Shown piece after piece: positions 16,877-21,706 of a DNA stretch of 21,706 bases. Below the pieces are notes generated by a model. That model searched no databases. It was not told where the DNA came from and saw nothing but the letters and a program-made list of their open reading frames with translations. Within the stretch, counting starts at the first letter, position 1, and every line of letters begins with the position of its first letter. A program made the translations under genes and the position numbers. The DNA is taken from NCBI GenBank assembly GCA_052390515.1, contig JBQTGV010000122.1, positions 1 through 21,706 of the forward strand. The letters run 5' to 3'. The DNA is from Candidatus Eiseniibacteriota bacterium. Its GTDB lineage: Bacteria > ARS69.

Positions 16877-16956
16877 CGCGGCGAGGCAGTGGAGTCGGGG
16901 AACGTCGCGACCGAAGAGGGGAAGGGATGGCCAAGCCGCTCGGCGAAAGGGGAAGC

Positions 16957-18261
16957 ATGATTCGGCAGTCGTGGCGCTTGCTGGTGTTCTGCGCGGCATT
17001 CGCGGCAGTGCTCTCGGGGTGCAGGCAGGACGCGGTCGAGCGGATCGCGCCGCACCCCGAGCGCATCGTTCAGGTCCTGCCGCCGCCTCCTCCACCCACG
17101 GACCGCCGCGAGGTGGAGATCCGCCGCGGCGAGCCGCTGGACGGTGCGATGCACCGGCTCGGGCTGTCGGCCGCGGAGCGATGGGTGGTGGGAGCGGCCT
17201 TCGGGGAGAAGGTCGATCTGCGCCGCGTGCTTCCCGGCGAGCGCCTCGAAGTCCAGCGGGATGCTTCGGGCCGCCTCGTTCGAGCAGCGTTGCACCGCGA
17301 CGAGCTGCAGAAGGTGGAGATGGAGCTTCCGGAGAGCGGACCCCCGGCGGTCGCCGTGGTGCGTCACGAGCCGGAGGTGCAGGTCCGCTGCGTCGTGGGC
17401 GAGCTGCACGGAAGCCTCTACGAATCCGTCCTCGCGGAGGGAGGAGACGCCGACCTGGTCAACCGCTTCGCCGACATCCTCTCCTGGCAGGTGGACTTCG
17501 TCACCGAGCCCCGAGAGGGCGACCGCTTCCGCATCCTCGCGGAGCGACGCTCCTTCGAAGGCAAGGACCTGGGATTCGGCGAGATCCTGGCCGCGGAGTA
17601 CGACGGAGACTGCGTCGAGGGGCGCGCCGTGCGCTGGTCCGGCGAGTCCGAGAAGGCGGGCTGGTACGACGATCGCGGGGAGTCCGTGCATCGCGCCTTT
17701 CTCAAGTCCCCTCTGAACTACTCGCGCATCAGCTCGGGCTTCTCTCGAGCCCGCCGGCACCCGGTCCTCAAGAAGGTCATGCCGCACTGGGGAGTTGACT
17801 ACGCCGCACCTCGGGGCACTCCGGTGAGCGCTCTCGGCGACGGAACGGTCGAGTTCGCGGGGATGAACCGCGGACTGGGCAATTACGTCGAGGTGCGGCA
17901 CAACTCGACCTACACGACGTGCTATGGCCACCTCGATCGCATCGCCAAGGGCGTCCGGCGCGGCGCGCGGGTGGAGCAAGGCCAGGTGATCGGAACCGTC
18001 GGCTCGACGGGTCTCTCCACCGGGCCGCATCTCGACTTCCGAGTGAAGCGGGGCGGTAGCTTCATCGATCCGCTGCGGCTCGAGTCCCCTCCGGGTCGCG
18101 CGCTTCTCGCCGAGGAGCAGGAGCGCTTCGCCCGTTGGCGGGACCGCGTATGGGTCCTCGCCGACCGGATCGAGCCCGGCGAAGAGCTCGCCTGGGACGA
18201 GGCGTGGGCCCGGGTACCGCCCGACGGAGCGCCTCGGGAGTTGCTGGCCCTCGCGCCCTGA
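16957..18261 (+). CDS. M23-family metallopeptidase lipoprotein (MepM/Csd3-like peptidoglycan endopeptidase)
   Basis: Lipobox VLSGC. FLKSPLNYSRISSGF, RRHPVL, HWGVDYAAP (HxxxD), YGHL and STGPHLDF. ATG 16957 with AGGGGA upstream; alternative start 16927. Confidence 0.9.
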   Translation: MIRQSWRLLVFCAAFAAVLSGCRQDAVERIAPHPERIVQVLPPPPPPTDRREVEIRRGEPLDGAMHRLGLSAAERWVVGAAFGEKVDLRRVLPGERLEVQRDASGRLVRAALHRDELQKVEMELPESGPPAVAVVRHEPEVQVRCVVGELHGSLYESVLAEGGDADLVNRFADILSWQVDFVTEPREGDRFRILAERRSFEGKDLGFGEILAAEYDGDCVEGRAVRWSGESEKAGWYDDRGESVHRAFLKSPLNYSRISSGFSRARRHPVLKKVMPHWGVDYAAPRGTPVSALGDGTVEFAGMNRGLGNYVEVRHNSTYTTCYGHLDRIAKGVRRGARVEQGQVIGTVGSTGLSTGPHLDFRVKRGGSFIDPLRLESPPGRALLAEEQERFARWRDRVWVLADRIEPGEELAWDEAWARVPPDGAPRELLALAP

Positions 18262-18346: not shown

Positions 18347-18646
18347 ATGCTTCGCCGAAGCTGGGTGTTCGCCCTCGCCCTCGCGCTCTCGTTCGCCGTC
18401 GGTCACCTCACGGGCGGCCGTGACGCCGCCGTCCCCGCCGTTCCCGGGGTGACGCCCGCCTGGGCCGGCGACCCGATGTCGATCGACGACCACGCCACGT
18501 TCGTCAGTACCGACGGGGGGAACGCCTACCTCTGGCGCCGGGACGGGGACCGGCTCGTCCTCGTGAGCCACTGCATGCGCATGGAAGTCGGTGCCGAGGG
18601 TCAGGCGACCTACGTCTCCCTCCCCGGGGTCGAGCGCGGCTCCTGA
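18347..18646 (+). CDS. Small hypothetical exported protein (99 aa)
   Basis: GGAGG RBS 6 nt before the ATG. Basic + hydrophobic N-terminus MLRRSWVFALALALSFAVG. GC-biased codons. Confidence 0.7.
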   Translation: MLRRSWVFALALALSFAVGHLTGGRDAAVPAVPGVTPAWAGDPMSIDDHATFVSTDGGNAYLWRRDGDRLVLVSHCMRMEVGAEGQATYVSLPGVERGS

Positions 18647-18672
18647 AGCTTCCGGTCAAGGAGCGCCCGAGC

Positions 18673-18954
18673 ATGGACGAATCCTGGAACAGGTTCTGGG
18701 ACAGCCTGATCGGCGACTGGGTCGCTATCCTCGTCCTGGCCTTCGGGATCCAGGGCTTGTGGTTCGGCCTGGTCCGGGTCGTCGCCGGACCGGGAACGGA
18801 CACGGGGGGCCTGCTCGGGCGAATCTCCGAGCTGTTCTTCGTCCCCTTCCGGGAGGGCCTGCCGAGCGCGGGGGGCGCCGCGGTCGTTCTCGGCCTCCTC
18901 TGGGCGGTAAAAAGGGCCTTGGACGCCCGATCGGAGTTTCCGGGGCGGCGTTGA
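18673..18954 (+). CDS. Small hypothetical membrane protein (93 aa, about two TM helices)
   Basis: AAGGAG RBS. Hydrophobic segments WVAILVLAFGIQGLWFGLV and AGGAAVVLGLLWAV. Confidence 0.65.
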   Translation: MDESWNRFWDSLIGDWVAILVLAFGIQGLWFGLVRVVAGPGTDTGGLLGRISELFFVPFREGLPSAGGAAVVLGLLWAVKRALDARSEFPGRR

Positions 18955-18979
18955 CGTTCGTCGCCACTGGTTCTAAACT
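18951..18979 (+). promoter_or_regulatory. Sigma70-type promoter for the small secreted peptide gene and probably the downstream activator
   Basis: TTGACG (18951-18956), 17-nt spacer, TAAACT (18974-18979): near-consensus in a very GC-rich background. Confidence 0.7.
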
Positions 18980-19063
18980 GAACTCGTCCGGGAGCTGTGA
19001 ACCAAGTTCCTGGGCACCGCCCTTCTTCGCGGGGGGCGGGGCGCTGTGCGCAGGGAGATCCGA

Positions 19064-19339
19064 ATGCCGAAGCAGTTGCGGAATCTCATCGCTGTGTTCG
19101 CCCTGCTCGCGTCGGCGGGCGTTGCGGCGGCCGGACCCGGGCAAGGGTCGGGTCGTCCGGGTGGAGACGGAGACCCCGACGGTCCCATGGTGATCCAGCC
19201 GATTACGGCGGTGAACCAGCCGACCGCAGATCGGAAGAGCGCGGCGTTGACCGACGGGGCGGAGGTCCGAGCGAAGCAGGGCTGGTGGATGAAGTCGCTG
19301 AGAGCGTACCTCAAGCTCTCTCGGTGGTTCTCCATCTAG
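19064..19339 (+). CDS. Small secreted protein (91 aa), candidate signalling-peptide precursor
   Basis: AGGGAG RBS before ATG 19064. Sec-type signal MPKQLRNLIAVFALLASAGVAAA, then GPGQGSGRPGGDGDPDGP, a polar linker and the tail GWWMKSLRAYLKLSRWFSI. Confidence 0.75.
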   Translation: MPKQLRNLIAVFALLASAGVAAAGPGQGSGRPGGDGDPDGPMVIQPITAVNQPTADRKSAALTDGAEVRAKQGWWMKSLRAYLKLSRWFSI

Positions 19340-19450
19340 TCCGTTCCCTCAGGGCTCGCCTGGATCCGTTCGTCCGCCGTCGCGCCCCGACAGCGGGGTG
19401 GTGCGCCGGCCGAGGTGAAGCGGATTCACAGGCGGCAGAGGTGTGAAGGG

Positions 19451-21706
19451 ATGAGAGGTCCTCACGAAGAGCCGCACGTCGGGAAGACTCCCGGTGGAGC
19501 GGACCACGACGTGAAGCCCCTGTCCGGACAGGGCGAGGATCTCTCGTTGCTCGAGCAGCTGGCCAGCTTCAGCCAGAGCGCCGGAGAGTTCACGTCGGCG
19601 ATGGAGTATTACGAGCAGATCCTGCGCATCGCCGAGCGCGCGCGGCAATCACCCGATCTCGTCGCCAAAGTCCTCCGCCAGATGGCCATGTGTCAGTGCC
19701 AGACCGGCGACTACACCCGCGCCCTCGGGCTCTTCGATTCGGCGCTCGCGCATCTCGAGGACGGTGGTGAAGAGCTCGAACGGTGCTCCATCGAGAATGA
19801 GCGCGCCTTCGCGCTGCTGAGTCTGGGCCGCTACGAGGAAGCGGAAGTCGCGGTGAGACGTGTCACCGAGCGGATCGTGGATCCCCGCGCCGCCGGAGAG
19901 CTCGCCCGCGCGCAGAAGAGCTTCGGTGTGATCGCCATGCGGCGGGGCGACTGGGACGCTGCGAGCCGCTCCTTCGAGGCGGCGCTCGCCGGGTTCCGGA
20001 TGATCTCCGATCGCGCGGGTTCGGCGCAGTGCCTCAACAATCTCGGCCTGATGGAGAAGAACCGTGGCAACCTCGAAGCGGCGGTGAAGTATCTGCGCGA
20101 GGCGCTCGGACACTTCGAGGACCTCGGCGACACGCCGCACATCGGGATGGGTCTCTACAACCTGGGCCTCGTCGAGTTCAAGATGGGACTGTGGGAGGAC
20201 GCGCACGCGCACTTCCAGCGTTCCGTGCGCCTGCTCGAGAGCATCGGCAACCGCTGGGAAGTCTCGCGGGTCCTCCTGAACCTGGGGAACTACTACCGGC
20301 ACAAGCGAGACTGGGACCAGGCGCAGGCCCACTACGACCGTGCCCGGCTGCTGATCGAGGAGCTCGGGGAGGCGCGTGAGCGCGTGCTGGTGGACGAGCT
20401 GCAGGGAGATCTGGCGCTCGCCTCCGAGCTGTACGAGGACGCCCGCAAGCTGTACCGCGCGGCGCTGGAGGGTGGGCAGCAGCTCGCTCCCCAGGGCGAC
20501 CTGGTCCTCGAGGCGCGCCGCCGGCTCGCCGACCTCGAGTCGCGCGTCGGCCGGATCGTCGAGGCCAAGCAGCATCTTGCGGAGGGGTTCGCCCTGTCGG
20601 AACGGCTCGACGAACCGATCGAGCGAGGCGCCTTGCTCCGAGTCCAGGCCCGTATCGAGTCGGCGGACGGCGACGTGGCGACGGCCGTGGAGACCTACCG
20701 AGCCGCGCTGCGGCTGCACGAGGCCTGCGGCGCGCCGTTCGAGCTCGCTCTGACGCGCCTGGAGTTCGCGACGTTCTGCATCGAGAACATCATCGAGCTC
20801 GACGACGCCGCGGCGCACCTGGAGCAGGCTCGCCGCACGTTCGAGCGCATCGGCGCCCAGTACGAGGCCGGCCATGCGTATCTGCTGGCCGCCAAGCTGG
20901 AGATGGTCTGCGATCATCCGACCGGCGACGCGCGTCACCACCTCGAGTCCGCGATCGAGCTGCTCGAGCGCATCGGCAGCGAGGACGACCGTGAGGCGCT
21001 GCGCGAGGTCCATCGCGATATCGATCGCTTGCTGGAGGAGACGTCGCTGTCCGAGCGCAACGACCTTGCTGCGCTGAACGAGGCCGTAGCTCGCATCCGG
21101 GCGGCGGAGGAACCCGAGGACAAGGTACGCATGATCGAGAGGACGCTCGAGGAACGGATGAACGCCGATCATGCCGGACTGCTGCTGAGCGCCGCGGGCG
21201 ATGGCTTCGTAGCGGCTCCCGGAAGCTCCCTCGCGGCCGGTGCGGCCACGCGTGCGGCGAAGCTCATCGGACGGCTCCGTGGCGAAGGCCCGCTCGCGCC
21301 GAAGCCGCTCGTGTCCACGTCGCCGGCGCGGGATCCCCGTCTCACCGGTTTCGACCGCGGTGTGCTCGATGGTCTGGGTTCCGTCGCGTTCATGCCGCTG
21401 TGCTCGGACGGGGAGGTTGTCGGCGGTCTCTACGTCGACCTGCAGCTCGATGCGGGCTACTTCCACCAGCCCGAGCTGGATTTCCTCGTGGCCTTCGCCA
21501 CGACCGCGACGATGGCCGTCCAGGAAATGCGGCTCGAGGCGGTCCGCGTCGAGAATCAGCGGCTCCGCCGCCGGGTGGCCAGCCGGGCCGGATTCGAAGG
21601 GATCGTCACCCAGAGCCGCCGGATGCTGGACATTCTCGATCTCGTGGAGAGGCTGCGGGACAGCCGCGCGACGATCCTGTTCCAGGGCGAGACCGGCACC
21701 GGCAAG
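19451..21706 (+). CDS. TPR-array + GAF + sigma54-interacting AAA+ enhancer-binding protein (3'-truncated by window end)
   Basis: Absent from the ORF track because there is no stop in the window. Manual translation from ATG 19451 is open for 752 codons: many TPR helices (CLNNLGLMEKNRGNLEAAVKYL, LYNLGLVEFKMGLWEDA, LLNLGNYYRHKRDWDQA), a GAF-like SVAFMPL..DGEVVGGLYVD...FHQPELDFLVAFA, a coiled linker ENQRLRRRV, then FEGIVTQSRRM...ATILFQGETGTGK (Walker A of NtrC-type proteins). Alternative GTG start at 19511. Confidence 0.9.
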   Translation, partial: MRGPHEEPHVGKTPGGADHDVKPLSGQGEDLSLLEQLASFSQSAGEFTSAMEYYEQILRIAERARQSPDLVAKVLRQMAMCQCQTGDYTRALGLFDSALAHLEDGGEELERCSIENERAFALLSLGRYEEAEVAVRRVTERIVDPRAAGELARAQKSFGVIAMRRGDWDAASRSFEAALAGFRMISDRAGSAQCLNNLGLMEKNRGNLEAAVKYLREALGHFEDLGDTPHIGMGLYNLGLVEFKMGLWEDAHAHFQRSVRLLESIGNRWEVSRVLLNLGNYYRHKRDWDQAQAHYDRARLLIEELGEARERVLVDELQGDLALASELYEDARKLYRAALEGGQQLAPQGDLVLEARRRLADLESRVGRIVEAKQHLAEGFALSERLDEPIERGALLRVQARIESADGDVATAVETYRAALRLHEACGAPFELALTRLEFATFCIENIIELDDAAAHLEQARRTFERIGAQYEAGHAYLLAAKLEMVCDHPTGDARHHLESAIELLERIGSEDDREALREVHRDIDRLLEETSLSERNDLAALNEAVARIRAAEEPEDKVRMIERTLEERMNADHAGLLLSAAGDGFVAAPGSSLAAGAATRAAKLIGRLRGEGPLAPKPLVSTSPARDPRLTGFDRGVLDGLGSVAFMPLCSDGEVVGGLYVDLQLDAGYFHQPELDFLVAFATTATMAVQEMRLEAVRVENQRLRRRVASRAGFEGIVTQSRRMLDILDLVERLRDSRATILFQGETGTGK

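Follow-up and report, generated by a model that had tools for sequence, protein, structure and literature searches.

The 21,706-nucleotide (nt) window analyzed here (positions 1 to 21,706, forward strand, of contig JBQTGV010000122.1 from a Candidatus Eiseniibacteriota bacterium, GenBank assembly GCA_052390515.1) makes up the whole of contig C122; the genome to which it belongs has 223 contigs and 4.27 Mb, a completeness of 95% and a G+C content of 70.6%. At its right end, on the + strand, lies a two-gene cassette in which a small open reading frame (ORF) with the features of an exported protein precedes the gene for a TPR-GAF activator of the sigma-54 type. A first-pass annotation, made by a model from the letters of the window alone, had described a near-consensus promoter, a secreted 91-aa ORF, a 111-nt gap without a U-tailed terminator, and a protein of more than 752 residues with a TPR array, a GAF domain and the start of an AAA+ domain, lacking any transmembrane (TM) segment or receiver domain; it had read the whole as a peptide-signalling system of the RRNPP kind. 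The description of the genes and signals held throughout when it was examined by promoter and terminator searches, Pfam, hydropathy analysis and AlphaFold2, while the interpretation fared less uniformly, as set out below. The cassette is headed by a sigma-70-type promoter at 18951-18979 (TTGACG, 17 nt, TAAACT; 9 of 12 consensus positions) that overlaps the stop codon of an upstream gene for a two-TM protein. This is the single match in the region, on the + strand, with 0.1 expected in shuffled sequences, and its TTGAC and TAnAnT boxes are kept in 12/12 orthologous loci of the phylum while the sequences flanking them diverge.

The small ORF extends from the ATG at 19064 to 19339 (91 aa plus stop) and is preceded by a Shine-Dalgarno (SD) sequence, GGGAG, at 19053-19057, 6 nt upstream of the start codon; the G+C fraction at its third codon positions (GC3) is 0.81. 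Its N-terminus is basic and continues into a hydrophobic core (Kyte-Doolittle mean 2.45 over 15 residues) followed by A/GP, so that residues 1-23 (19064-19132) have the appearance of a signal peptide with predicted cleavage at AAA/GP. On these features the product would be exported and cleaved, leaving 68 residues. Beyond the predicted site follow a Gly/Pro/Asp-rich stretch containing GDPDGP and a variable middle; the C-terminus reads WWMKSLRAYLKLSRWFSI. The GDPDxP motif, at residues 36-41 (19169-19186), is invariant, and residues 66-90 (19259-19333) are predicted to form a basic, aromatic C-terminal helix. An AlphaFold2 model built with 58 relatives has helices at 3-20 and 66-90 with a disordered middle, and reaches pLDDT values of 83-90 in blocks 71-90; across the 58 sequences, residues A23, G36, P38 and P41 do not vary. 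When a hidden Markov model (HMM) of the small ORF was run against 1.84 billion cluster representatives it retrieved 59 clusters, 58 of them of 71-109 aa and one, at 209 aa, a call in which the ORF is fused to the upstream gene; 55 of the 59 are no longer than 100 aa. Neither Pfam nor NCBIfam holds a family for the small ORF, one family member is annotated at NCBI as 'hypothetical protein', and the ESM Atlas gives only leads, scoring 0.87-0.89, to clusters of unnamed 'hypothetical protein' entries that are mostly labelled Eiseniibacteriota. Within the phylum the small ORFs share about 30% identity, against about 60% for the activators, with both small-ORF motifs retained; judged by these identities, the small ORF is fast-evolving relative to the activator.

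The activator gene starts at 19451 and is open at the contig end, so that the window holds its first 752 residues (19451-21706). These comprise a TPR superhelix of 25 helices at residues 29-532 (19535-21046), a GAF domain at residues 561-689 (21131-21517; Pfam 3e-6) and the start of an AAA+ domain with Walker A at residues 718-752 (21602-21706), corresponding to positions 1-35 of the Sigma54_activat profile. Pfam reports TPR_12 at 6.6e-37 together with many other TPR families, and the AlphaFold2 model (pLDDT 85.8) shows the 25-helix superhelix followed by an alpha/beta GAF fold. The Sigma54_activat match scores 15.7 bits, below the cut-off of 20.2 only because the domain is truncated. No receiver domain was found by Pfam in the 752 residues and no TM segment by hydropathy, the highest 19-residue value being 1.18.

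The remainder of the gene was located elsewhere in the assembly. A scan of the genome with PF00158 returned 23 matches, one of which, C203:3-410, begins at the first bases of its contig and at profile position 32. The end of C122 and the start of C203 carry the same Walker A codons in a 14-nt overlap and are the only such pair of contig ends. The piece on C203 (C203:3-848, 281 aa) supplies Sigma54_activat positions 32-167 (3.4e-55), AAA_lid_14 and HTH_8 (1.6e-14), and has a GAFTDA loop and a DEIDKT Walker B region as in the orthologues. The joined protein has about 1029 residues, compared with 1027-1050 in the orthologues, and the genes that follow it on C203, one of the sigma-70 family and then recD2, are those found in a complete relative's genome. 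Because PF00158 has 23 matches in the genome and the last 32 nt of the window match an activator gene on C209 at 91%, the break (21690-21706 / C203:1-14) represents a repeat-induced assembly gap and not a truncated gene. A GAFTGA on contig C211 was considered as the continuation of the gene and rejected as a chance match in a non-coding frame. A comparison with the paralogous long activators of the same genome (on C62 and C25) gave no clear picture.

The AAA+ signature and the helix-turn-helix (HTH) that the first-pass annotation had expected beyond the window are thus present as HTH_8 and as GAFTDA, not GAFTGA. The loop reads G[AS]FTDA in 11/11 orthologues of the phylum and GAFTGA in homologues from Zixibacteria and from soil metagenomes. 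In a regulome study of Desulfovibrio vulgaris, GAFTDA (DVU2106) is listed among natural variants expected to keep activation (PMC4641369), and by that precedent the present protein would be competent for sigma-54. The genome has rpoN (Sigma54_DBD at 1.4e-64, on C161). In NCBIfam, a full-length orthologue of the activator finds NifA and NorR among its best matches, below cut-off.

Downstream of the activator stop, C203 carries three 17-bp enhancer-like sites of the type TGTGAA-N5-TTCACA (at 933, 966 and 1032), a predicted sigma-54 promoter, TGGCAC-N5-CTGCA, at 1180-1195 (TGGCACAACGTCTGCA), and, from about 1307, an RpoS/RpoD-like sigma factor gene, which is the next gene. A -24/-12 promoter with enhancer sites and a target gene, for which the first-pass annotation had proposed to read downstream, is therefore found directly after the activator. 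The encoded sigma factor belongs to the sigma-70 family, with regions 1.2, 2, 3 and 4, and its best NCBIfam matches are RpoS and RpoD, both below cut-off. When the output regions of the phylum were aligned the same layout was seen in 12/12 loci, with enhancer spacings of about 33 and 64-66 nt and a TGGCA[CT]-N5-NTGC[AG] element 137-149 nt past the last enhancer site, also in 12/12; a search allowing up to 3 mismatches picked up two or three enhancer sites per locus, and one in L004. Throughout the 4.27-Mb genome only 13 sites match the enhancer consensus with up to 2 mismatches, four of them in the activator locus, including the only cluster. From their adjacency to the gene and the sharing of the motif, these sites would be bound by the activator itself.

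The best match to the enhancer consensus in the genome, and the only one with no more than 1 mismatch, is the palindrome GGTGAA-GCGGA-TTCACA at 19414-19430, 21 nt upstream of the activator ATG. GTGAA-N5-TTCAC occurs exactly, at -31 to -37, in 7/12 loci and near-exactly in the others, and the site at 19414-19430 is likely an autoregulatory binding site of the activator. A further, degenerate copy of the motif with 3 mismatches, TGTGAAC-N4-GTTCC at 18996-19012, stands just downstream of the promoter within a conserved inverted repeat of the leader (18988-19013). The corresponding GTGAAC..sTTCCC, at about -412 to -459, is recovered by exact pattern in 7/12 loci, with variants in the others, and the repeat could be an operator or a 5' hairpin.

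The small ORF and the activator gene are separated by 111 nt (19340-19450), and the only terminator-like structure matched in 18600-19600, at 18813-18832, lies outside this gap. Directly downstream of the small-ORF stop, several orthologues (L005, L010 and others) have very stable GC-rich hairpins, in L010 a perfect 10-bp stem. These could act as terminators without a U tract, or as attenuators, and so fix how much small protein is made relative to the activator. A 448-nt contig from a soil metatranscriptome, belonging to a relative about 96% identical, spans 18996-19442, that is from about 10 nt past the predicted transcription start to just before the activator ATG, and all three of its indels fall after the small-ORF stop. 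Further pieces cover parts of the activator. The 448-nt contig is suggestive of a discrete small-ORF transcript, assembled contigs being incapable of showing transcript ends or levels and their uncovered parts being uninformative.

The pairing of the two genes is conserved. In the same GTDB phylum (one family), all 11 other species genomes have an activator orthologue, at 49-64% identity, and in 12/12 loci the activator gene is preceded, at a distance of 104-132 nt and in the same orientation, by a small ORF. Each of these ORFs has a signal peptide, A/GP (A/NP in one), GDP[DE]xP and a C-terminus of the type W..LR.YLRL. With the small-ORF HMM, one clear copy is detected per genome, always at the activator (12/12), and one genome has an additional match at E 0.009. 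The first-pass annotation had asked whether a small signal-peptide ORF with a GDPD-like motif stands consistently upstream of such activators, and within the phylum this is so without exception.

More distant lineages keep the arrangement as well. Genome G030, from the Zixibacteria, encodes a 27%-identical activator of the same architecture with a signal-peptide ORF upstream, and an activator match with an E-value no higher than 1e-30 is present in 151/151 Zixibacteria genomes; the full-length ones among those listed come from most families. We sampled 50 of these loci, the 30 best (one family) and 20 picked from 11 other families. An ORF of 93-147 aa lies upstream of the activator in 49/50 loci (12 families), and none was found in L097. 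Besides a signal peptide, these ORFs have a near-invariant motif of the [DE]HPWD type, an acidic linker rich in Gly and Ser and, at the C-terminus, a hydrophobic segment with aromatic residues. Among activators from soil metagenomes (29-30% identity), 59 loci were at hand, of which 18 were examined; left out were L108, L111, L113, L115 and L118, which lack the activator N-terminus, L122, and L123-L157, 35 weak matches to the AAA+ part only. A signal-peptide ORF precedes the activator in 18/18 of the loci examined, with a basic aromatic C-terminal segment such as LRLLFSVARRLDYWLFLLR, and two of the ORFs carry GDPDE and a C-terminal W-rich helix. In every lineage the small ORF is co-oriented with the activator and close to it, from a 4-nt overlap to a distance of 144 nt. 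The cassette is thus real and conserved across at least three uncultured lineages, and the pair is deeply conserved while the flanking genes change, which argues for a direct functional tie between its members. As possible grounds for giving up its reading the first-pass annotation had named homologous activators without an upstream ORF, or a missing GAFTGA in a genome without rpoN; what we found is a conserved pair, the GAFTDA variant and an rpoN gene. Among the papers listed by full-text literature searches, none deals with a TPR-GAF activator that has a small exported ORF as its partner.

In the soil lineage, a -24/-12-like element of the type TGGCATGCAG lies exactly 210 nt past the activator stop in 5/7 loci scanned (the closely related L099, L100, L101, L103 and L104), while the distant L116 and L119 have it at 729 and 601 nt, respectively. 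The genes downstream of these activators do not encode a sigma factor. Because the soil loci share the layout without the sigma gene, an activator followed by its own sigma-54 promoter appears to be the general arrangement, with targets that vary.

Taken together, these observations suggest a circuit in which a sigma-70 promoter would drive a two-gene operon. Its products would be a 91-aa protein exported by Sec and a sigma-54 activator of the TPR-GAF type, cytoplasmic and without a receiver domain. The activator would bind sites of the TGTGAA-N5-TTCACA type, three of which sit 150-250 bp upstream of the TGGCAC-N5-CTGCA promoter, and sigma-54 polymerase would then transcribe from this promoter the gene for an RpoS/RpoD-like group-2 sigma factor. 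The site before the activator gene and the degenerate site in the operon leader would provide feedback. The exported protein would be the cognate input of the activator: after cleavage of the signal peptide its product, most likely the basic C-terminal helix, would be sensed by the acidic TPR array, and this would set the activity of the AAA+ motor. How an exported product might come to a cytoplasmic sensor is hypothetical; it could be re-imported, as in RRNPP systems, or sensed before export. Genes, motifs, conserved adjacency, the enhancer and promoter architecture and the presence of rpoN are observed directly. That the small protein is a direct input to the TPR sensor, within the cassette as proposed, is the reading we place first, and we favor it tentatively.

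Several points weigh against this reading. The contact between the small protein and the TPR array is its purely hypothetical step. Across the lineages the pair has no linked gene for a peptidase, an exporter or an importer, and the seven SBP_bac_5 (Opp/Dpp-type) matches in the genome, six above the Pfam cut-off, lie apart from it. Because the organism is diderm (9 Omp85 matches), a secreted signal would need to pass both membranes on the way out and again on the way in. Within the phylum the net charge is -18 to -38 for the TPR region and +1 to +5 for the C-terminal 18 residues of the small protein, a weak hint of contact between an acidic TPR array and a basic C-terminal helix; this complementarity is absent in Zixibacteria, and the comparison, over three lineages, is confounded by base composition. 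A Foldseek search with the TPR fold gave only generic TPR superhelices among the best ~40 of 500 matches. When the small ORFs of the phylum and of Zixibacteria were compared by hhalign only their signal peptides aligned (probability 69%), and the ESM Atlas gave no usable match for a Zixibacteria small ORF. Homology of the partners across lineages is unsupported because the profile comparison aligns signal peptides only; what the small ORFs of different lineages have in common is position and architecture.

The kinship with RRNPP systems that the first-pass annotation had proposed is partly supported. As in Rap-Phr, NprR-NprX, PlcR-PapR and AimR-AimP, the gene for a small Sec-type propeptide adjoins that of a cytoplasmic TPR protein, and the propeptide evolves fast with a conserved part at its C-terminus. 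A published signature of such pairs consists of a propeptide of 10-100 aa, a Sec/SPI signal, a receptor of 250-500 aa, TPRs in the receptor, and directly neighboring genes (PMC10075063). The pair agrees with four of these five features (propeptide size, Sec signal as judged by sequence features, TPRs and adjacency) and departs from the fifth, since the activator has about 1029 residues instead of 250-500 (PMC10075063). Moreover, no receptor of the Rap, NprR, PlcR, PrgX or AimR type was among the best ~40 of the 500 Foldseek matches, and Pfam likewise gave no match particular to RRNPP receptors. The activator also differs from RRNPP receptors, whose outputs are an HTH or a phosphatase, in having a GAF domain, a sigma-54 AAA+ motor and HTH_8. 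Its host is a diderm candidate phylum, whereas RRNPP systems belong to Firmicutes and their phages, and the small protein is longer than RRNPP propeptides, with a second invariant motif beside the cleavage site.

From its GAF domain onward the activator resembles NifA, NorR, FhlA and DVU2106, which have the same order of GAF, sigma-54 AAA+ and HTH_8 without a receiver, and enhancers and a -24/-12 promoter adjoining the gene; with DVU2106 it also shares a natural GAFTDA (PMC4641369). It differs from all of these in the TPR superhelix of about 500 residues before the GAF domain, the exported small ORF at the head of the operon and the sigma gene as target. The closest parallel for the output is the Rrp2-RpoN-RpoS pathway of Borrelia burgdorferi, in which the NtrC-like activator Rrp2 and sigma-54 are reported to drive an RpoS-type sigma gene (PMC2940757, PMC3037356). 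Like it, the present circuit would be a two-step sigma cascade running from an enhancer-binding protein and sigma-54 to an RpoS-type sigma factor. The present system differs in its TPR-GAF input with an exported partner, in its three evident enhancers and in the position of the sigma gene next to the activator.

The inputs of receiver-less sigma-54 activators are usually unknown, and peptide-TPR signalling is regarded as a Firmicutes trait. The wider proposal, that a Sec-exported propeptide serves as dedicated ligand of a TPR-GAF activator and that the cassette represents a family of peptide-TPR communication or export sensing outside Firmicutes, in diderm candidate phyla (an Eisenbacteria-like phylum, Zixibacteria and soil relatives), which here decides the expression of an RpoS-like sigma factor, seems doubtful to us, though worth stating. 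If it were true, signalling of cell density or envelope state would feed, by way of sigma-54, into a sigma cascade. Across deep lineages one activator family keeps a small exported protein as its constant partner, and in the phylum studied here the whole circuit can be read from the sequence, from promoter, partner and sensor to enhancer, -24/-12 promoter and target sigma factor. Such a compact and testable system lends itself to the question of how a protein outside the cytoplasm can control an AAA+ activator within it, and it opens a first way into the control of stationary phase or stress in phyla without cultured members.

Three other explanations, absent from the first-pass annotation, suit the anatomy of the pair just as well and have to be weighed against direct input. 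The one we rank next, and regard as rather unlikely, posits no regulatory link: the small ORF would encode a protein of the envelope or cell surface that shares no more than a transcript with the activator, or that belongs to its regulon, and the TPR-GAF part would sense something else, for example a small molecule bound by the GAF domain. The GAF domains of NifA, NorR and FhlA-type activators do bind small ligands, which counts for this explanation, and through the degenerate enhancer-like site of the leader the small ORF would itself come under regulation. It fits poorly with the persistence of order, orientation and close spacing at 27-30% activator identity while every flanking gene examined changes, and with the lack of any other copy of the small ORF in the 12 genomes. 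In an explanation ranked behind this one, and improbable in our judgment, the small protein would act before it leaves the ribosome, as a cis-acting secretion monitor. The small ORF would encode an arrest peptide of the SecM/MifM/VemP type whose C-terminal motif stalls the ribosome until Sec pulls on the signal peptide; the stalled ribosome would open the mRNA or block termination in the 111-nt gap, and activator synthesis would go up when export or membrane energisation fails. The part of the small protein most widely kept across lineages is indeed its extreme C-terminal segment rich in W, R, K and Y, a composition that we take to be typical of MifM. In every lineage, too, the ORF points the same way as the downstream gene and lies near it, and GC-rich hairpins past the stop codon occur in several orthologues. 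Substrates that monitor Sec or YidC include SecM, MifM, VemP and newer arrest peptides (PMC10987492, PMC7897499), and an arrest-peptide screen describes a K-Y-x-I-W class of similar composition (PMC10987492). Like the genes of arrest peptides, the small ORF lies upstream of the gene it would regulate and in one transcription unit with it, and its product has an export signal at the N-terminus, a spacer longer than 30 residues and a conserved motif at the C-terminus; the export signal, the spacer and the conserved C-terminus are also among the properties by which the screen selected its candidates (PMC10987492). Criterion (i) of the same screen calls for a downstream sec or yidC gene (PMC10987492), and here the downstream gene encodes a transcription activator. 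In addition, the activator SD is not predicted to pair with the 3' end of the small ORF in 12/12 folds (pairing probability 0-0.16), the folds giving no SD-masking structure tied to that end, and the length of the gap varies widely among lineages. The invariant GDP[DE]xP or HPWD motif beside the cleavage site, an element additional to those of the arrest peptides described in these sources, would have no role, and many Zixibacteria ORFs carry a variable tail of 15-40 residues past the conserved hydrophobic segment. Were the small ORF an arrest peptide after all, the range of secretion monitors would widen to include a target that is neither a sec nor a yidC gene.

The explanation that we rank last, and consider the least probable of the four, retains the contact between the two proteins and places it in the cytoplasm. 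The unexported precursor would bind the TPR array as an antagonist or co-activator, Sec export would remove it, and the activator would report export capacity in trans. Such a logic is familiar from FlgM and from TPR chaperones with a second role as co-regulators in type III secretion. Export gating draws on the same conserved pairing as direct input by the mature protein, and it needs neither re-import across two diderm membranes nor a linked transporter, in keeping with the absence of one beside the pair. We know, however, of no precedent for an export-gated regulator with a Sec signal peptide, which counts against it, as does the usually quick export of Sec substrates. The conserved motif right after the cleavage site suggests, moreover, a role for the mature exported form.

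Some observations on the wider loci may be added. Between enhancers 2 and 3 of the output region (C203:1000-1030, and the same place in L004-L014) most loci have a CAAC-N3-4-TT(C/G) element, e.g. AATCAACGACTTCC, which resembles an IHF site (WATCAANNNNTTR). In Zixibacteria (L042-L071 and L079-L098), a CTTGACA-N17-TAnnnT promoter stands about 95-200 nt before most small ORFs (33/46 by strict pattern). It is immediately followed by a conserved GGCA(A/G)A-N3-TGCG, whose spacing is too short for a -24/-12 promoter and which may be an operator at the transcription start. Because a strict sigma-54 pattern upstream of the small ORFs was matched in only 1/46, the Zixibacteria operons are not obviously sigma-54-dependent. 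L015, the one Zixibacteria locus whose flanks were scanned against Pfam, is bordered upstream by a GT9 glycosyltransferase gene and downstream by an LplA-like gene; reading frames of the LplA type also follow the activator in six translated Zixibacteria loci.

Upstream of the cassette, the window encodes an M23 peptidase with a Csd3-like domain (16927-18261), a secreted protein of about 100 aa (18347-18646) and the two-TM protein of 93 aa (18673-18954), the latter two without a Pfam or NCBIfam family. Single-sequence queries with these two genes against 41 Zixibacteria genomes gave nothing above chance, with 2 marginal matches (E about 0.007-0.008) for one gene and none for the other. Within the phylum, the two-TM gene is found upstream of the promoter in 12/12 loci and the gene for the secreted protein in 7/12.

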